A DNA stretch of 64,000 nucleotides, from positions 22,174 to 86,173 of IMG/VR virus record IMGVR_UViG_3300027743_000025; one strand, written 5' to 3'. The notes beneath the pieces are model-generated. The model was not told the DNA's origin. It was given only the letters and a program-made list of their open reading frames with translations, and searched no databases. Source of the stretch: a virus. Both the position numbers and the translations under genes were made by a program. This document shows, piece after piece, positions 1,294 to 61,387 of this stretch; the stretch's first letter is position 1; the number at the start of each line of letters is the position of its first letter.

Positions 1294-1323
1294 AATCTAG
1301 CACACTGTCAACGAGAGTCAACC
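1294..1323 (-). promoter_or_regulatory. sigmaA-type promoter with tandem GTTGAC boxes
   Basis: TTGACT(1321-1316)-16 bp-TAGATT(1299-1294)-6 nt-ATG; second GTTGACA 10 bp after the first box. Confidence 0.7.
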
Positions 1324-1332
1324 CCCCAGTTT

Positions 1333-1363
1333 GGTTGGCACCTGTTGATAGTCCTGCTATAGT
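1333..1363 (+). promoter_or_regulatory. sigmaA-type promoter with tandem boxes
   Basis: TTGGCA(1335)-17 bp-TATAGT(1358)-6 nt-ATG 1370; GTTGATA 10 bp after the first box. Confidence 0.75.
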
Positions 1364-1369
1364 CGAGGT

Positions 1370-1723
1370 ATGGAAACCACCACGATCACTCAGTCCCAGA
1401 TCCAGCTCACCCGCGCCGACACTGTTGTGGCCGGCTCTACCATCATCCGGAACCGGTACGACAGCGGCGTGATGATCGAGCCGTCCTCGCACCTGGTTGA
1501 GCGCGCCGGCTTTGACTCCAAGGAGAACCGCGTCGTCTTCAAGTGTGGATACCGGATCTTCACCTACCGGCCGGCCGACCTGGTGATGGTCGTTGCCGGT
1601 GCTATGGTCCCCGACCCCCAGCTGGAAGACCTGGTTGACATGACCCTGCGCGGCGCCGGGATCACCGAGGAGACTCTGACCAAGGCCGACGAAAACCTTG
1701 ACGACGTTTGGCAGGTCGGCTAG
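1370..1723 (+). CDS. hypothetical protein (possible SH3-like N-terminus)
   Basis: Strong GC3 codon bias; leaderless start after promoter. Confidence 0.8.
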   Translation: METTTITQSQIQLTRADTVVAGSTIIRNRYDSGVMIEPSSHLVERAGFDSKENRVVFKCGYRIFTYRPADLVMVVAGAMVPDPQLEDLVDMTLRGAGITEETLTKADENLDDVWQVG

Positions 1724-1733
1724 TTTTCTCTTC

Positions 1734-1868
1734 GCCGGTCACCGCGAACCCCACAGGAACAGACCGCCTGTGGTCCACGCGGAACGCACTCACAACGCGG
1801 TGGCCGGCACCCTAACCTTACTGAGGGGGAGGGCCGGTAGGGATGCGGACGGGCGACCCTACCGGCCC
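1734..1868 (+). ncRNA. candidate structured RNA
   Basis: 13-bp closing stem (1734-1746 with 1796-1808) enclosing a CCACAGG/CCTGTGG hairpin; second 12-bp stem 1831-1868; no ORF in the track covers it. Confidence 0.4.
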
Positions 1869-1881
1869 GCCCTGTAAGCGA

Positions 1882-1913
1882 AGAAAACCCCCAGCCTAGG
1901 CCGGGGGTTTTCT
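1882..1913. terminator. bidirectional intrinsic terminator
   Basis: AGAAAACCCCC-AGCC-TA-GGCC-GGGGGTTTTCT inverted repeat with A and T tracts. Confidence 0.8.
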
Positions 1914-2008
1914 ACACATGTAGTAGCCCGCCAGGACATCCACGACTGGCTCTGCTACTGGTATGACTATGTAGTTGTCCCGAAACTCTAGCATGGTAGG
2001 GGTCCTAG

Positions 2009-2440
2009 GTGTACGACGATGACACTCAGGCCAGATTTTGGTCTAAGGCCGATGTGCGCGGGCCGGATGAGTGTTGGCCCTGGTCGGGATCCAGAGCCGA
2101 TAGAAACGGCAGACCTGGCTATGGGCACTTTTGGCTGAGAGGCAGCAACCGTCAGGCTCACCGCATCTCATGGGAGATAGCAAACGATGTTCAGATGACC
2201 GAGCCGTGTGCTCGGCATACCTGTGACAACCCACCGTGTGTGAATCCCTATCATGTGCTGCCTGGCACGCAGGCAGACAACATGTCGGATGCTTCTGTCA
2301 AGCAGCGATGGAGAACTAGTCACTGCCCCGCTGGACATGAATACGCTGGCATGAACCTGCACACCCGGCCCGATGGTAGACGTGTATGTCGTGCATGTGC
2401 TCGGGAACGGGAGCGCCGTCGTCGTGGATCCAAGAGATAA
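2009..2440 (+). CDS. HNH endonuclease with C-terminal Zn domain
   Basis: RFWSK...ECWPW, AHRISW, HTCDNPPCVNPYH, GTQADN, CPAGH...CRAC. Confidence 0.9.
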   Translation: MYDDDTQARFWSKADVRGPDECWPWSGSRADRNGRPGYGHFWLRGSNRQAHRISWEIANDVQMTEPCARHTCDNPPCVNPYHVLPGTQADNMSDASVKQRWRTSHCPAGHEYAGMNLHTRPDGRRVCRACARERERRRRGSKR

Positions 2441-2441
2441 G

Positions 2442-59015: not shown

Positions 59016-59059
59016 GCTCTGATCGTACCGGTTACGTCCGCTCTGGTCTTCCTCCTCCC

Positions 59060-59090
59060 GTTGACACCCTTGCGACTTCTCCCTTAGCCT
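59060..59090 (+). promoter_or_regulatory. sigmaA-type promoter
   Basis: TTGACA(59061)-18-TAGCCT(59085)-6-GTG 59097. Confidence 0.7.
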
Positions 59091-59096
59091 CCCCGT

Positions 59097-59696
59097 GTGC
59101 AGATGACCGACCAACTGGCCTACGCCGTTAGACGCTGGCTGACTCACCGAACCCGGCCAGCCGGAGACTGCGTGATCTGGACCGGAGCGGTTGACACGCT
59201 AGGACATGCCAGGATCCACTACCTCGGCAAGGGCTACCGCGTGCACCGTCTGATCTACATGCTGAACCACAGGCTGGAGACTCTGCCCGACGACTTCAAG
59301 CTGAAGAAGATCTGTGGTCGGTGGGGATGCATCAAGTCCGAGCACTTCCGCCAGTACAAGTCCAGGCCCATGACCAGCCCGCGCTGCAAGTACGGACACG
59401 AGTTCACCCCGGCCAACACCTACGTGTACAAGAAGGGCAGTCGGCCGTCCCGAGCCTGCTTGGCTTGCTCGCGAGCCAGACGGAAGGGCATAGACCCCAG
59501 GCTAGAGCCGGTACGCACAGAGAAACGCCCGCACGGGGTAGACGGCTACTGCGCTAGGGGACACAATCTGCGTCTCCCCCTCCCCAACGCCAACATCTAC
59601 GTGCTACCCAGCGGCGAACGCCGTTGCAAGATCTGTCGGCGCCGCAAGGAACGGAACGCATATGCATCTAACAAGGAAGCACCAAGCGTCCATTGA
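59097..59696 (+). CDS. HNH-like protein with two C-terminal Zn modules
   Basis: CVIWTGA, VHRLIY, C...CI..EH; CKYGH...CLAC; CARGH...CKIC. Confidence 0.75.
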   Translation: MQMTDQLAYAVRRWLTHRTRPAGDCVIWTGAVDTLGHARIHYLGKGYRVHRLIYMLNHRLETLPDDFKLKKICGRWGCIKSEHFRQYKSRPMTSPRCKYGHEFTPANTYVYKKGSRPSRACLACSRARRKGIDPRLEPVRTEKRPHGVDGYCARGHNLRLPLPNANIYVLPSGERRCKICRRRKERNAYASNKEAPSVH

Positions 59697-59967
59697 GGAC
59701 AGGGTGGCAACATACCTGCTGACGGCCGAGCGGTTCGGGGACTGTCTGGTGCACCGGGGTCCACTGCTCGTGTGGGCCGGCCCGCGCCGCCGGGAGCGTA
59801 TCGATCGTTTGGTCTTTGAAATTGTCGGAGGGTACCGGCTACGTCGCACTGAACAGCTGATCCCTACCTGCTGCTGTGGGCAGGAAGCTGGTTGCCCTGG
59901 CCGCCGGGGCTGCCTGCACCGAGAGTGGCTGTACTGCCTCAACATCGAACACATGAAAGTGCTGTGA
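59662..59967 (+). CDS. degenerate HNH-like protein
   Basis: GDCLV...IDRLVF...CLNIEHM. Confidence 0.5.
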   Translation: MHLTRKHQASIEDRVATYLLTAERFGDCLVHRGPLLVWAGPRRRERIDRLVFEIVGGYRLRRTEQLIPTCCCGQEAGCPGRRGCLHREWLYCLNIEHMKVL

Positions 59968-60189
59968 GTGGAGACTTACGACCTTCGCCGGAGGATGGCT
60001 GTCCTGGCCATCCTGTACGGCTGCCCAGATCACCGGATCCAGGACGTGGTTGACAGAGCTATGTCCAGGCGCCACCTCACCCTGGCCAACGCCGGGGACT
60101 ACATCGCTCAGTCGATGGCTGAGTTGAACGTGAGGGACGTTCACCTGGTCCAGGAACCTCGGAGGAGACACAAGCATGGGCGACGATGA
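59968..60189 (+). CDS. hypothetical protein
   Basis: Operonic ORF. Confidence 0.55.
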   Translation: METYDLRRRMAVLAILYGCPDHRIQDVVDRAMSRRHLTLANAGDYIAQSMAELNVRDVHLVQEPRRRHKHGRR

Positions 60190-60313
60190 CGACGGGGTGC
60201 TGTTCCCTGATGACTGGAGTCCCGGCAGAGGGTGCCTGGTCTCCTTGGGGGTGCTGCTCTTTTGGGGGAGCCTCGGATGGTTGATCGTCCAGTGGTTGCG
60301 ATCTACCGTCTAG
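60176..60313 (+). CDS. 45-aa membrane protein (not in ORF track)
   Basis: GGAGGAG RBS; MGDDDDGVLF...GCLVSLGVLLFWGSLGWLIVQWL. Confidence 0.6.
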   Translation: MGDDDDGVLFPDDWSPGRGCLVSLGVLLFWGSLGWLIVQWLRSTV

Positions 60314-60315
60314 GT

Positions 60316-60606
60316 GTGGCTGGTGGCCAGCATATAGAGGTCAACTGGTGTCGCTCCGGAGAGGAGCCGGCCAGTGATCCCTTTGTGTTCTGGAGCTATG
60401 ACGAGGCCCTGAAGTTCCTCAAAGAAGAGTTTGAATATCTGGCCTACCACACAGCTGGCTCTGGCACTGCGGAGCACCTCAACAACTACCGCGAAGCCAT
60501 CACCAGACTTCAGCTCCTCCGAGGCGCGGCACATGCCGGAAAGCCAGACGTTGAGGACTGCGCATTCACAATCGGAGACCTATGCTACTGGCTCAAGGGG
60601 GTTTGA
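60316..60606 (+). CDS. hypothetical protein
   Basis: Operonic ORF; start uncertain. Confidence 0.6.
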   Translation: MAGGQHIEVNWCRSGEEPASDPFVFWSYDEALKFLKEEFEYLAYHTAGSGTAEHLNNYREAITRLQLLRGAAHAGKPDVEDCAFTIGDLCYWLKGV

Positions 60607-60890
60607 TGGACTTCACCAGAGAGGGCTGGTATCAGCACTCCTGCGGACACGAGGAGTTCTACTGGCCCGGCCAGTGGTTTCCATCTAAGTGCCGCCGCTG
60701 CCACAAGACCAACCTGCGGTGGGCGTGGGTTCCCGGCTACGTCTTCCAAGATCAGGAAGCTGATTCTTCGCTGGACATTCGCGCGCTCCGAGACATGCAC
60801 TACCGGAACATGCTGGAGTGGCTCATCAAGCGGGACAAGGAACTGGCTGCCGAACTGTACGATGCTCTCACAGAAGGAAGAATCCGATGA
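60606..60890 (+). CDS. hypothetical Zn-ribbon protein
   Basis: H.CGH...CRRC; TGATG coupling. Confidence 0.65.
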   Translation: MDFTREGWYQHSCGHEEFYWPGQWFPSKCRRCHKTNLRWAWVPGYVFQDQEADSSLDIRALRDMHYRNMLEWLIKRDKELAAELYDALTEGRIR

Positions 60891-61372
60891 ACCGAGACGG
60901 AACGCCCGTGCAGTACGGCGGCACAGCGCTCGGGTGGTGGAAGCATCGGGAGTGCAATCGATCTTACTTCTTCACGCCAGCTGAGGGTCTGCTGCTGCAC
61001 CCCGAACGGGATAGCGCGGCGAGGTGGTGCCCCTGGTGCCGCCACAACGGAGGGGAGTGGGATCCCCTGCCCGGCCATGTCGTGATGGAACCTCTGGATC
61101 ACTGGAAGCAAGCTGTGGACCATGCCGGCCAGGCGCTCTATGAGGCCAGCCCGGTGAGCATCCACGCGCCGCTGTGGGACACCCTCAGCGAGAGCAGGAA
61201 GCAGGGCTACCGCGCCGTGGCCGAGCAGGTGCTCAAGGGATGCGCCAACGACATCCGCGCGGCTGCGATATCCGAGGTGCTCCGGCTGCTGCACGGTCAC
61301 CAGAAGGATGTCCTGCGGTATGTGTTCGACAACATCCCTCTGAAGGCTGAGGGAGTAGTTGACACGAGTTGA
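60887..61372 (+). CDS. hypothetical protein (Zn ribbon + W..L.E..K..Y domain)
   Basis: H..C...CPWC; ATGA coupling. Confidence 0.65.
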   Translation: MNRDGTPVQYGGTALGWWKHRECNRSYFFTPAEGLLLHPERDSAARWCPWCRHNGGEWDPLPGHVVMEPLDHWKQAVDHAGQALYEASPVSIHAPLWDTLSESRKQGYRAVAEQVLKGCANDIRAAAISEVLRLLHGHQKDVLRYVFDNIPLKAEGVVDTS

Positions 61373-61387
61373 GTGTAGTCGTACACT
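61357..61387 (+). promoter_or_regulatory. promoter with tandem boxes
   Basis: TTGACA(61359)-17-TACACT(61382)-6-GTG 61394; GTTGAG at 61368. Confidence 0.8.

Follow-up and report, generated by a model that had tools for sequence, protein, structure and literature searches.

A doubled -35 box with strict 10-bp phasing marks one of two promoter classes in an uncultured actinophage-like genome

We found that the promoters of this phage fall into two stable classes, one with a single -35 box and one in which a second copy of the box (box 2) lies in strict +10 phasing with the first (box 1), is under selection and is followed by no second -10 element. The genome holds about eight single-box promoters alongside 15 double-box promoters, a clean two-class promoter code in a phage based on a single versus a doubled -35 box. 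Box 2 is kept in a relative, G001, with which protein identity is 55-98%. The reading that we tentatively prefer, with confidence somewhat short of even, is that box 2 forms an operator-like tandem site overlapping the sigma region 4 contact, through which the 15 small-accessory-gene promoters would be jointly controlled. All coordinates refer to the window, which is the whole 64,000-nucleotide (64-kb) stretch of DNA that was analysed.

Double-box promoters and the genes they precede

The source is an uncultured soil or sediment phage, actinophage-like, with an 86-kb genome composed mostly of ORFans. The phage has no cultured relatives and almost no recognisable regulators.

The preliminary description had listed eight places in the window where two GTTGAC boxes start 10 bp apart. 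All eight were present, four as exact GTTGAC-N4-GTTGAC and four with one or two mismatches, and each carried the claimed TAnnnT -10 element 16-18 bp after box 1. The positions given on the minus strand were off by 1-6 nt and are corrected here to 1317-1322/1307-1312 and 4686-4691/4676-4681. The exact motif occurs four times in the 64-kb window (1307-1322 on the minus strand; 2601, 14332 and 33784 on the plus strand) and was absent from 100 dinucleotide shuffles of the window; the whole 86,173-bp record contains six copies, with none for a reversed-pattern control. A neutral rule, which allows up to two mismatches over the 12 box positions and requires TAnnnT at a spacer of 16-18 bp, returned precisely the eight listed sites in the window and 15 in the 86-kb genome. 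By chance, 30 first-order Markov simulations of the window averaged 0.03 sites under this rule and never exceeded 1. The promoters in the window are as follows.

1294..1322, minus strand: double-box promoter, both boxes exact (box 1 1317-1322, box 2 1307-1312); TAGATT -10 at 1294-1299 after a 16-bp spacer; leaderless ATG at 1285-1287 (gene 1084-1287)
1334..1363, plus strand: double-box promoter, GTTGGC at 1334 and GTTGAT at 1344; TATAGT -10 at 1358-1363; leaderless ATG at 1370 (gene 1370-1723); back to back with the promoter at 1294..1322 (minus strand); box 2 exact in the orthologue of the relative
2601..2630, plus strand: double-box promoter, both boxes exact; TAGGAT -10 at 2625-2630; leaderless ATG at 2637 (gene 2637-3056)
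4661..4691, minus strand: double-box promoter, box 1 exact at 4686-4691, box 2 GTTGGC at 4676-4681; TAACCT -10 after an 18-bp spacer; leaderless ATG at 4652-4654 (gene 4346-4654)
14332..14361, plus strand: double-box promoter, both boxes exact; TAGAGT -10; leadered; heads an operon from 14396
16956..16985, plus strand: double-box promoter, GTTGTC and GTTGAT; TAAGAT -10; box 2 is GTTGAT in the relative too
33784..33813, plus strand: double-box promoter, both boxes exact; TATAGT -10; heads genes 33855-34166 and 34275-34562; divergent from a 547-aa virion-module gene
61358..61387, plus strand: double-box promoter, GTTGAC and GTTGAG; TACACT -10; leaderless GTG at 61394 (gene 61394-61768)
1698..1726, plus strand: single-box promoter-like site, CTTGACG, 17-bp spacer, TAGTTT; single-box in the relative too
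3315..3343, plus strand: single-box promoter, GTTGACA, 17-bp spacer, TAGTGT; ATG 6 nt past the -10
16683..16711, plus strand: single-box promoter, ATTGTCA, 17-bp spacer, TAGTCT; leaderless ATG at 16718; single-box in the relative too
59061..59090, plus strand: single-box promoter, GTTGACA, 18-bp spacer, TAGCCT; upstream of gene 59097-59696; single-box in the relative too

The motif composition supports the double-box sites as probable real promoters of the host type (SigA/sigma-70-type), with TTGACA, a spacer of 17 bp (16-18) and TAnnnT. In particular, box 1 matched TTGACA with at most one mismatch at 15/15 sites, and the spacer was 17 bp at 12 sites, 16 bp at one and 18 bp at two; where it was 17 bp, the end of the box 2 hexamer lay 8 bp before TAnnnT. 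A start codon is found 5-9 nt past the -10 at 8 of the 15 promoters, and about half of them head leaderless genes. In a search of RNA runs, none contained the sequence. As had been claimed, the class heads small genes; these are ORFans, with a Pfam family in 0 of the 10 first genes tested. The 15 sites offer a ready operon map, with predicted start points and leaderless genes, for a genome of mostly ORFans.

Some double-box copies read TTGGCA-N4-TTGAC. Sigma-54 promoters contain GG and GC elements 12 bp apart (TGGCAC-N5-TTGC). A sigma-54 promoter of the -24/-12 type was considered and rejected, as the spacing here is 10 bp and the TAnnnT -10 and leaderless starts fit sigma-70.

The tandem period in this phage is exactly 10 bp. 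When a sigma-70-like match was defined as TTGACA with at most one mismatch, a spacer of 16-18 bp and TAnnnT, box 2 (at most one mismatch, at +10) accompanied 15 of the 28 matches in the genome. A second exact TTGAC near sigma-70-like promoters was found at +10 in 5/21 cases and at +12 once, and no other offset was occupied in the scanned ranges of -16 to -5 and 5 to 16.

Conservation of box 2 and the dispersed 8-mer

Comparison with G001 over 12 orthologous pairs revealed identities of 0.94 for box 1 and 0.96 for box 2, with 0.50-0.64 for N3, N7 and the flanks, figures that are biased because the pairs were chosen by motif. Three more orthologues were found by synteny alone, and box 2 was kept in all three with 0-2 mismatches. 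Additionally, single-box promoters whose -35 region could be aligned in the relative stayed single-box in 3/3 cases. Both among the 15 copies and relative to G001, N3, N7 and the flanks have diverged and both boxes have been retained. The +10 phasing and this conservation bear out the earlier proposal that the boxes lie on one helix face and overlap the RNA polymerase site, and they mark box 2 as a selected element.

It had also been stated that roughly 60 single boxes lie within genes. This number does not hold for GTTGAC, of which the window has 141 copies where 29.8 would be expected, but it fits the 8-mer GGTTGACA.

725..63757, both strands: 68 dispersed copies of GGTTGACA across the window, of which called ORFs contain 62

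Genome-wide, the 8-mer is present in 109 copies, of which 90 lie inside ORFs (56 co-directional, 34 opposed). Single boxes were conserved in place in the relative at 54/81 positions, compared with 83/323 for control 8-mers, and an extra 5' G was found in 104/123 single boxes versus 5/15 promoter boxes. None of 105 non-promoter 8-mers had a partner at +/-10, and tandem boxes were present at promoters only. The single boxes, which had been proposed as possible half-sites or sinks, are a distinct and real 8-mer with conserved positions.

Possible readers of box 2

With the -10 set at -12 to -7, box 1 would occupy -36 to -31 and box 2 -26 to -21. Head-to-tail binding of a protein to both boxes would span about -36 to -20, the surface contacted by sigma region 4. 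Because the bound protein would cover this surface, the 15 double-box promoters would switch together, and the roughly eight single-box promoters would be left alone by the putative tandem-box protein. Repression or gating appears likelier than activation because the promoters are near consensus. We infer the binding of a protein to the boxes, as well as its sign, timing and identity. If a protein does read the tandem box, it would represent an unrecognised kind of phage regulator aimed at the -35 consensus itself.

A Pfam search of the 113 phage ORFs yielded a single recognisable DNA-binding ORF, a sub-threshold winged helix.

17965..18240, minus strand: 91-aa winged-helix protein (MarR_2, E 6.1e-5, 23.5 bits, below the cut-off of 27)

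This ORF has just three homologues and is a weak candidate for the reader of the boxes. Trans_reg_C, SARP and CII-like families were absent from the Pfam tallies of the phage, no WYL protein was found in it, and no integrase or repressor family was among its 25 best Pfam families.

Two unrelated phage groups, G003 and a low-GC marine group, also carry families of the doubled GTTGACA box with the same spacing in multiple copies, and neither has a protein in common with this phage (BLASTP E 1e-3). The three phage groups with identical geometry have G+C contents of 37%, 61-62% and 65%. The notion of a private operator is weakened because the same box and spacing recur in phages without a common protein and because this phage has just one weak DNA-binding candidate; separate regulators converging on the -35 consensus in unrelated phages would be awkward. 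The same tandem box was further observed upstream of 27 leaderless HTH_3 + Peptidase_M78 (XRE-peptidase) genes of several bacterial phyla, for which autoregulation through the tandem box would be the natural reading; no XRE-peptidase relative was found in G003 or the low-GC marine group, the unrelated double-box counterparts of this phage. The presence of this box in many phyla provides a second, cultivable system for the same question.

Since box 2 is identical to the -35 consensus, sigma itself could be the reader. Under this main rival reading, sigma region 4 of the host holoenzyme might dock at box 2 as well as at box 1 without any extra factor, which would either increase RNA polymerase capture or hold the enzyme non-productively as a buffer, and the dispersed GGTTGACA copies on phage DNA could serve as a holoenzyme antenna or sponge. 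We regard this as unlikely, although several observations are consistent with it: sequence logos show box 2 as the -35 consensus with the flanking G and often also the A that follows it; the geometry is identical in three phage groups of differing G+C without a common protein; the box is also present at rplJ and rpoB promoters of Clostridia and Bacillota; and the Pfam search gave no regulator. However, box 2 taken as a -35 has no -10, and this unproductive register would be expected to compete with the productive register. The double-box class also coexists stably with single-box promoters whose -35 and -10 elements are equally good, the family is missing from the five nearest isolated actinophages, and GGTTGACA has an extra G that promoter boxes mostly lack. 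In 301 Clostridia genomes, 28 matches fell at offset 10 and 18 at offset 11. Virome-wide, +10 is not generally preferred, with single matches at offsets 9, 10 and 11 in 36, 26 and 28 stretches. A literature search turned up no such element. Improbable to a slightly greater degree is the broader proposal that sigma region 4 reads a doubled box built independently in phages and mobile cassettes of distant hosts, with the 109 positionally conserved GGTTGACA copies of this phage lineage acting as a genome-wide antenna or sponge that draws holoenzyme from host promoters onto phage DNA. If sigma does read box 2, it would be a new bacterial core promoter element and would explain why more than 100 -35-like words are kept within phage genes.

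We consider it very unlikely that the two boxes together form a class II site for a SARP/OmpR- or lambda CII-like activator that binds in tandem and either recruits sigma region 4 or re-shapes it (sigma adaptation). The direct repeats do overlap the -35 and spacer, and the 10-bp period is that of the lambda CII site TTGC-N6-TTGC. The 3' repeat also lies 8 bp before the -10, as in SARP targets (PMC10936776). Against this, the -35 and -10 elements are near consensus with 17-bp spacers, whereas known activator-dependent promoters of these kinds have poor ones; the period is 10 bp rather than 11 or 22; and the Pfam tallies contain no Trans_reg_C, SARP or CII-like family.

We assign an equally low probability to box 2 having no reader, as a by-product of promoter duplication or an in-phase bendability signal whose recurrences reflect chance and shared descent. 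Virome-wide, single matches at +10 are no commoner than at +9 or +11, and the G003 promoters are near-identical across about 50 bp, as after recent duplication. However, the 15 copies here kept their boxes while N3, N7 and the flanks diverged, the offset is strictly +10, and the count is more than 100-fold above chance. Finally, a pair of promoters that overlap at a 10-bp offset, the second using box 2 as its -35, is extremely improbable: some leadered copies, including some of the low-GC group, do have TAnnn(not T) about 10 bp past the -10, but this reading is contradicted by the absent second -10 (TAnnnT 16-18 bp from box 2 at 0/15 sites of this phage, and also at 0/18, 0/8 and 0/39 sites), and in leaderless copies the start codon occupies that position.

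Comparison with known systems

We compared the preferred arrangement, a tandem site for a protein at the sigma region 4 contact, with four known systems. SARP targets are direct repeats whose period is 11 or 22 bp, and their 3' repeat lies 8 bp from the -10; at the afs box, Streptomyces coelicolor AfsR binds the repeats side by side at the sigma region 4 site, and the afsS promoter has poor elements (TTCAGC -35, CACTGT -10) (PMC10936776). The phage sites are similar in their actinobacterial hosts and in having direct repeats on one helix face; these repeats run over the -35 and spacer, and 8 bp separate the 3' one from the -10. In contrast, the phage period is 10 bp instead of 11 or 22 bp, and its upstream repeat is a consensus -35 with a good -10, unlike the poor afsS elements. 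Additionally, the phage showed no domain of SARP or OmpR type.

The lambda CII sites at pRE, pI and paQ are TTGC-N6-TTGC direct repeats that flank a weak -35, and CII activates these promoters. In both cases a phage coordinates several promoters, here putatively, through direct repeats that recur after 10 bp across the -35 region and spacer. The repeat described here, however, coincides with a consensus -35 in strong-looking promoters, and the Pfam search detected no CII-like protein.

PafBC-dependent mycobacterial promoters contain a "-26 element", have no -35 and need a WYL-domain activator that acts by sigma adaptation. The likeness lies in the actinobacterial setting and in an extra spacer element that starts near -26, a short and constant distance upstream of the -10; the difference is that this phage has a consensus -35, which box 2 repeats, and lacks a detectable WYL protein.

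The stoperators of Cluster A mycobacteriophages (L5 gp71) are asymmetric sites scattered mostly between genes and following the direction of transcription, in phages with a repressor and an integrase. This phage resembles L5 in its actinophage-like character, in an asymmetric site that takes in the -35 of promoters, early ones in L5 and putatively early here, and in many dispersed genome copies. Membership in the Cluster A stoperator system was nevertheless ruled out: the copies are 8 bp long, single, mostly in ORFs (90/109) and in both orientations, and the 25 best Pfam families here include neither an integrase nor a repressor family. The tandem promoter arrangement of this phage is not a known feature of L5.

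Anatomy and gene context of the double-box promoters

The preliminary description had listed eight sites in the window at which a GTTGAC-like -35 box (box 1) was followed by a second copy at +10 (box 2). We found that the exact motif GTTGAC-N4-GTTGAC occurred four times in the window and in none of 100 shuffles, and six times in the whole genome, in which the reversed pattern was absent; the remaining four of the eight sites carried one or two mismatches each. A neutral rule, which allowed at most two mismatches in the 12 box positions and required TAnnnT at a spacer of 16-18 bp, recovered precisely these eight sites in the window and no others, and 15 sites in the genome, as compared with a mean of 0.03 sites in simulated windows. 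The sites are therefore real, with only the positions reported for the minus strand being slightly off.

With the G of box 1 taken as index 0, box 1 occupied index 0-5 and was followed by an A, box 2 occupied index 10-15, and TAnnnT was located at index 24-29, corresponding to a 17-bp spacer, in 12 of the 15 sites. Setting the -10 at -12 to -7 placed box 1 at -36 to -31 and box 2 at -26 to -21, with 8 bp between the end of box 2 and the -10. A start codon lay 5-9 nt downstream of the -10 at 8 of the 15 sites, making these genes leaderless. Of the evidence at hand, these leaderless starts most strongly support the -10 assignment and hence the reality of the promoter.

Several arrangements around these promoters were also observed. 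At window 1294-1363, two double-box promoters were placed back to back with only 12 bp from box 1 to box 1; each began a leaderless gene, and the layout resembled a genetic switch region. Three double-box promoters had the word GGGTCACAA 12-13 nt 5' of box 1; it lay once at window 33763-33771 and twice outside the window, at positions 5687 and 10985 of the whole record (G000), 16.5 and 11.2 kb ahead of the window. This upstream word was kept in the relative G001 and had only four copies in the genome, and its frequency in the window was not above chance. G000 3034-4900, also ahead of the window, contained two genes behind a promoter with a degenerate box 10 bp before the -35 (offset -10 bp): the product of the first has a prepilin-type N-terminal methylation motif (Pfam N_methyl), and the second is a 482-aa ORFan.

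No Pfam family was found in ten tested first genes behind double-box promoters, and PHROGs returned two weak matches of unknown function for them. Both double-box and single-box promoters lay within small-gene modules on both strands, and a consensus sigma-70-like promoter of either class was absent from the leftward replication and virion operons (approximately 5021-13454 and 18822-59147, minus strand), which implies a phage factor or a different type of promoter for these operons. The distribution fits early or accessory genes transcribed by unmodified host polymerase, the timing being suggested by analogy.

Box 2 and the dispersed single boxes

Box 2 is a separate, selected element on four grounds, namely the promoter classes, the offset, the conservation and the lack of a -10 of its own. 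The genome contained 28 sigma-70-like hits, 15 of which had box 2. The good-looking promoters without it were as follows:

Genome 2955, 15467, 16554, 18996, 23871, 25488, 38856 and 81234: promoters lacking box 2 (about eight), several of them also leaderless

The existence of these sites indicates that a promoter in this phage does not require box 2. A second exact TTGAC was found at +10 in 5 of 21 hits and at +12 in one, and at no other tested offset. For conservation, we used G001, a true relative of 86.5 kb with direct terminal repeats that matched 99 of the 113 proteins of this phage at approximately 30-98% identity, with the majority falling within 55-98%. Across 12 orthologous promoter pairs, which were picked by motif and thus give a biased comparison, identity was 0.94 in box 1 and 0.96 in box 2, and 0.50-0.64 in N3, N7 and the flanks. 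Three further orthologues located by synteny alone retained box 2, and three single-box promoters with an aligned -35 region remained single-box in G001. Lastly, box 2 had its own -10 at 0 of 15 sites in this phage, 0 of 18 in G001, 0 of 8 in the unrelated virus G003 and 0 of 39 in a low-G+C marine group. A partner at +/-10 was found for none of the 105 other 8-mers examined, and tandem boxes were confined to promoters.

The dispersed 8-mer GGTTGACA, which had been proposed to serve as half-sites or sinks, ranked first in over-representation at k = 6 (as TTGACA), 7 and 8, with an enrichment of approximately 40-fold. The genome contained 109 copies, 68 of them in the window (725-63757), and most were intragenic, with both strands represented; among the 90 copies within ORFs, 56 were co-directional with the gene and 34 were opposed. 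G001 contained 102 copies, 20 were present in 21.7 kb of sequence from a relative at 43% identity, and other equally distant relatives had none; only part of the wider clade carried the word (present at loci L147 and L155, absent at L146 and the rest of L148-L164). Where G001 could be aligned, 54 of 81 copies were exactly conserved, compared with 83 of 323 neighbouring control 8-mers. A 5' G was present on 104 of 123 single boxes versus 5 of 15 promoter boxes (p = 6e-5), and the GGTTGACA boxes were always single. Taken together, the conservation, the 5' G and the single state indicate that these copies are real, selected DNA elements and not simply spare promoter half-sites.

Two loci with unusual box content were also seen. 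The 3.2-kb stretch at window 25350-28541 lacked GGTTGACA and may be a recent acquisition; it spans a 734-aa gene (25514-27718) within the lowest-G+C stretch of the window (0.555 over 24001-28000). At G000 12450-12618, approximately 9.6 kb ahead of the window, an AT-rich core next to a gene for an 887-aa DUF3987 primase-helicase-like protein was surrounded by GGGGTGACAA words, one position off GGTTGACA, in direct and inverted orientation, and this cluster looks like an origin.

Occurrence in viruses and cellular genomes

The 86,173-bp IMG/VR record, of which the window comprises bases 22,174-86,173, was rated complete, with a G+C content of approximately 0.61 and no tRNA genes found, and megablast and blastn searches revealed no near relatives among 50,697 deposited phages. 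The large terminase (TerL, window 52092-53615) showed 41% identity to that of Actinomycetia phage DSL-LC01 and 38-42% to those of Gordonia, Microbacterium and Arthrobacter phages, and the family A DNA polymerase (PolA, window 8342-10129) showed approximately 32% identity to actinophage counterparts. Pfam families in the 113 ORFs (Rv2525c-like hydrolase, PASTA, DUF7239, DUF6011 and DUF5047) were consistent with an actinophage, and we infer an actinobacterial host. Integrase, sigma factor and RNA polymerase families were absent among the best 25 of 36 Pfam families. The 20 sequencing runs listed as carrying its DNA (freshwater sediment and soil metagenomes) included no RNA run with the phage sequence.

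A motif search beyond this phage revealed the same doubled box in its relative, in unrelated viruses and in many bacterial phyla. The double-box family was absent from the five nearest isolated actinophages, and among more distant metagenomic relatives it was found only in the immediate clade. An IMG/VR pattern scan followed by whole-record scans showed that, among the matches listed, unrelated viruses also have multi-copy families of this architecture. G003 (67 kb, 65% G+C), whose terminase had its nearest counterparts in Shewanella, Rhizobium and Erythrobacter phages (28-35% identity), had eight near-identical double-box copies, all with the -10 at index 24 and with a leaderless ATG at index 37 in seven copies and index 39 in one. 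Eighteen marine loci (34-38% G+C) had 2-4 copies each, 39 unique sites in total. One gene of this low-G+C group showed 72-75% DNA identity to Prochlorococcus siphophages, and Prochlorococcus phage MED4-184, which shares one gene with the group, contained no double box. Two other arrangements were noted. G004 (L136-L140), an 80-kb record classed as a provirus with 58% G+C, had 24 GTTGAY-N4-GTTGAC sites within AT-rich intergenic regions, none followed by a -10 at the spacing seen in the phage, and these probably belong to a different tandem-repeat binding system. Gut viral contigs with 36-38% G+C (L349, L350 and L360/L368) each had two conserved promoters with a second GTTGA at +11, which may represent a sister architecture. 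BLASTP of ORFs (E 1e-3) found no protein shared between any of G000, G003, the low-G+C loci and G004.

In cellular genomes, GTTGACA-N3-GTTGACA-N7-TAnnnT was found in many phyla, with at least 120 matches in a scan whose listed taxa are not a fair sample. The downstream genes clustered: at least 27 encoded a protein of approximately 377 aa that combines an HTH_3 with a Peptidase_M78 domain (verified for two members), nearly always leaderless behind the doubled box (L183-L301; e.g., L206:366-1534 and L190:2505-3672). Among the matches listed, these loci came from Bdellovibrionota, Desulfobacterota, Spirochaetota, Ignavibacteriota and others. This XRE-peptidase locus looks like a mobile, self-regulated cassette; a profile search for its relatives in the phages described here found none at E<=1 except one match (0.029) in G004. 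At least nine doubled boxes were located at rplJ in Peptostreptococcaceae and at least six at rpoB in Bacillota, and several other downstream genes among the matches listed encoded antitoxins or small regulators. Some loci had three to five tandem 10-bp units: directly before the -10, L208:2022-2090 (a Thermomicrobiales MAG) had five GTTGACAnnn units and L186 and L240 had three each, those of L186 preceding a ParD-like antitoxin gene.

Across 301 Clostridia genomes, matches numbered 28 at offset +10 and 18 at the control offset +11, with 3 and 2 in the reversed-pattern controls. In IMG/VR, a 17-base pattern gave 36, 26 and 28 stretches at +9, +10 and +11, respectively, most of which were single sites repeated across families of related contigs. 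These controls indicate no general +10 preference in viruses or cells, and they weaken the cellular sites (rplJ, rpoB and others) as evidence for an element intrinsic to RNA polymerase; the isolated housekeeping examples may reflect chance and shared descent. Left standing are the phage families with multiple copies and the XRE-peptidase cassette.

Candidate readers and possible functions of box 2

A Pfam search of all 113 ORFs, and then of 88 small ORFs at E 0.01, gave a marginal KfrA_N match (E 0.0069, not assigned to an ORF) and one DNA-binding hint, the following ORF:

17965-18240: 91-aa winged-helix protein, MarR_2 match at E 6.1e-5 and 23.5 bits, under the curated 27

This protein had only three homologues in 5.8 billion proteins and showed only weak MarR and Lrp-type matches to solved structures.

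Box 2 may well be an operator-like site, a reading to which we give slightly less than an even chance. It is favoured by the existence of two promoter classes that are both stable, by the strictness of the phasing and by the restriction of tandem boxes to promoters, and also by the cellular cassette, in which the same box goes with a gene encoding a DNA-binding protein. On this reading, head-to-tail binding of a protein to the two in-phase boxes would mask the surface needed by sigma region 4 and would so switch the double-box class as one unit. Repression or gating is favoured over activation because the -35 and -10 are near consensus. The direct-repeat operator of the preliminary description is plausible but unproven, and it is less peculiar to this phage than first supposed.

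The other surviving reading, to which we give a clearly lower chance, is that sigma region 4 itself reads box 2 as a docking site. Counting for it, three phage groups that differ widely in composition all have the -35 consensus as their box 2, and a regulator search found none. Counting against it, the register of box 2 lacks a -10, single-box promoters coexist with the double-box ones, +10 is not generally preferred, and we did not find such an element described in the literature searched. Two overlapping promoters are excluded since box 2 never occurs with its own -10, and a sigma-54 promoter is ruled out by the spacing.

In the main texts of a partially covered literature, we met no report of phage promoters with a GTTGAC direct repeat or with a -35 box in duplicate. 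A further point for the operator-like site is its likeness to the targets of SARP activators on actinomycete promoters, which are direct repeats that overlap the -35 and the spacer and end 8 bp short of the -10 (PMC10936776), just as the phage repeats do. The architecture is a new form of a familiar principle, in which a regulatory site is laid over the -35.
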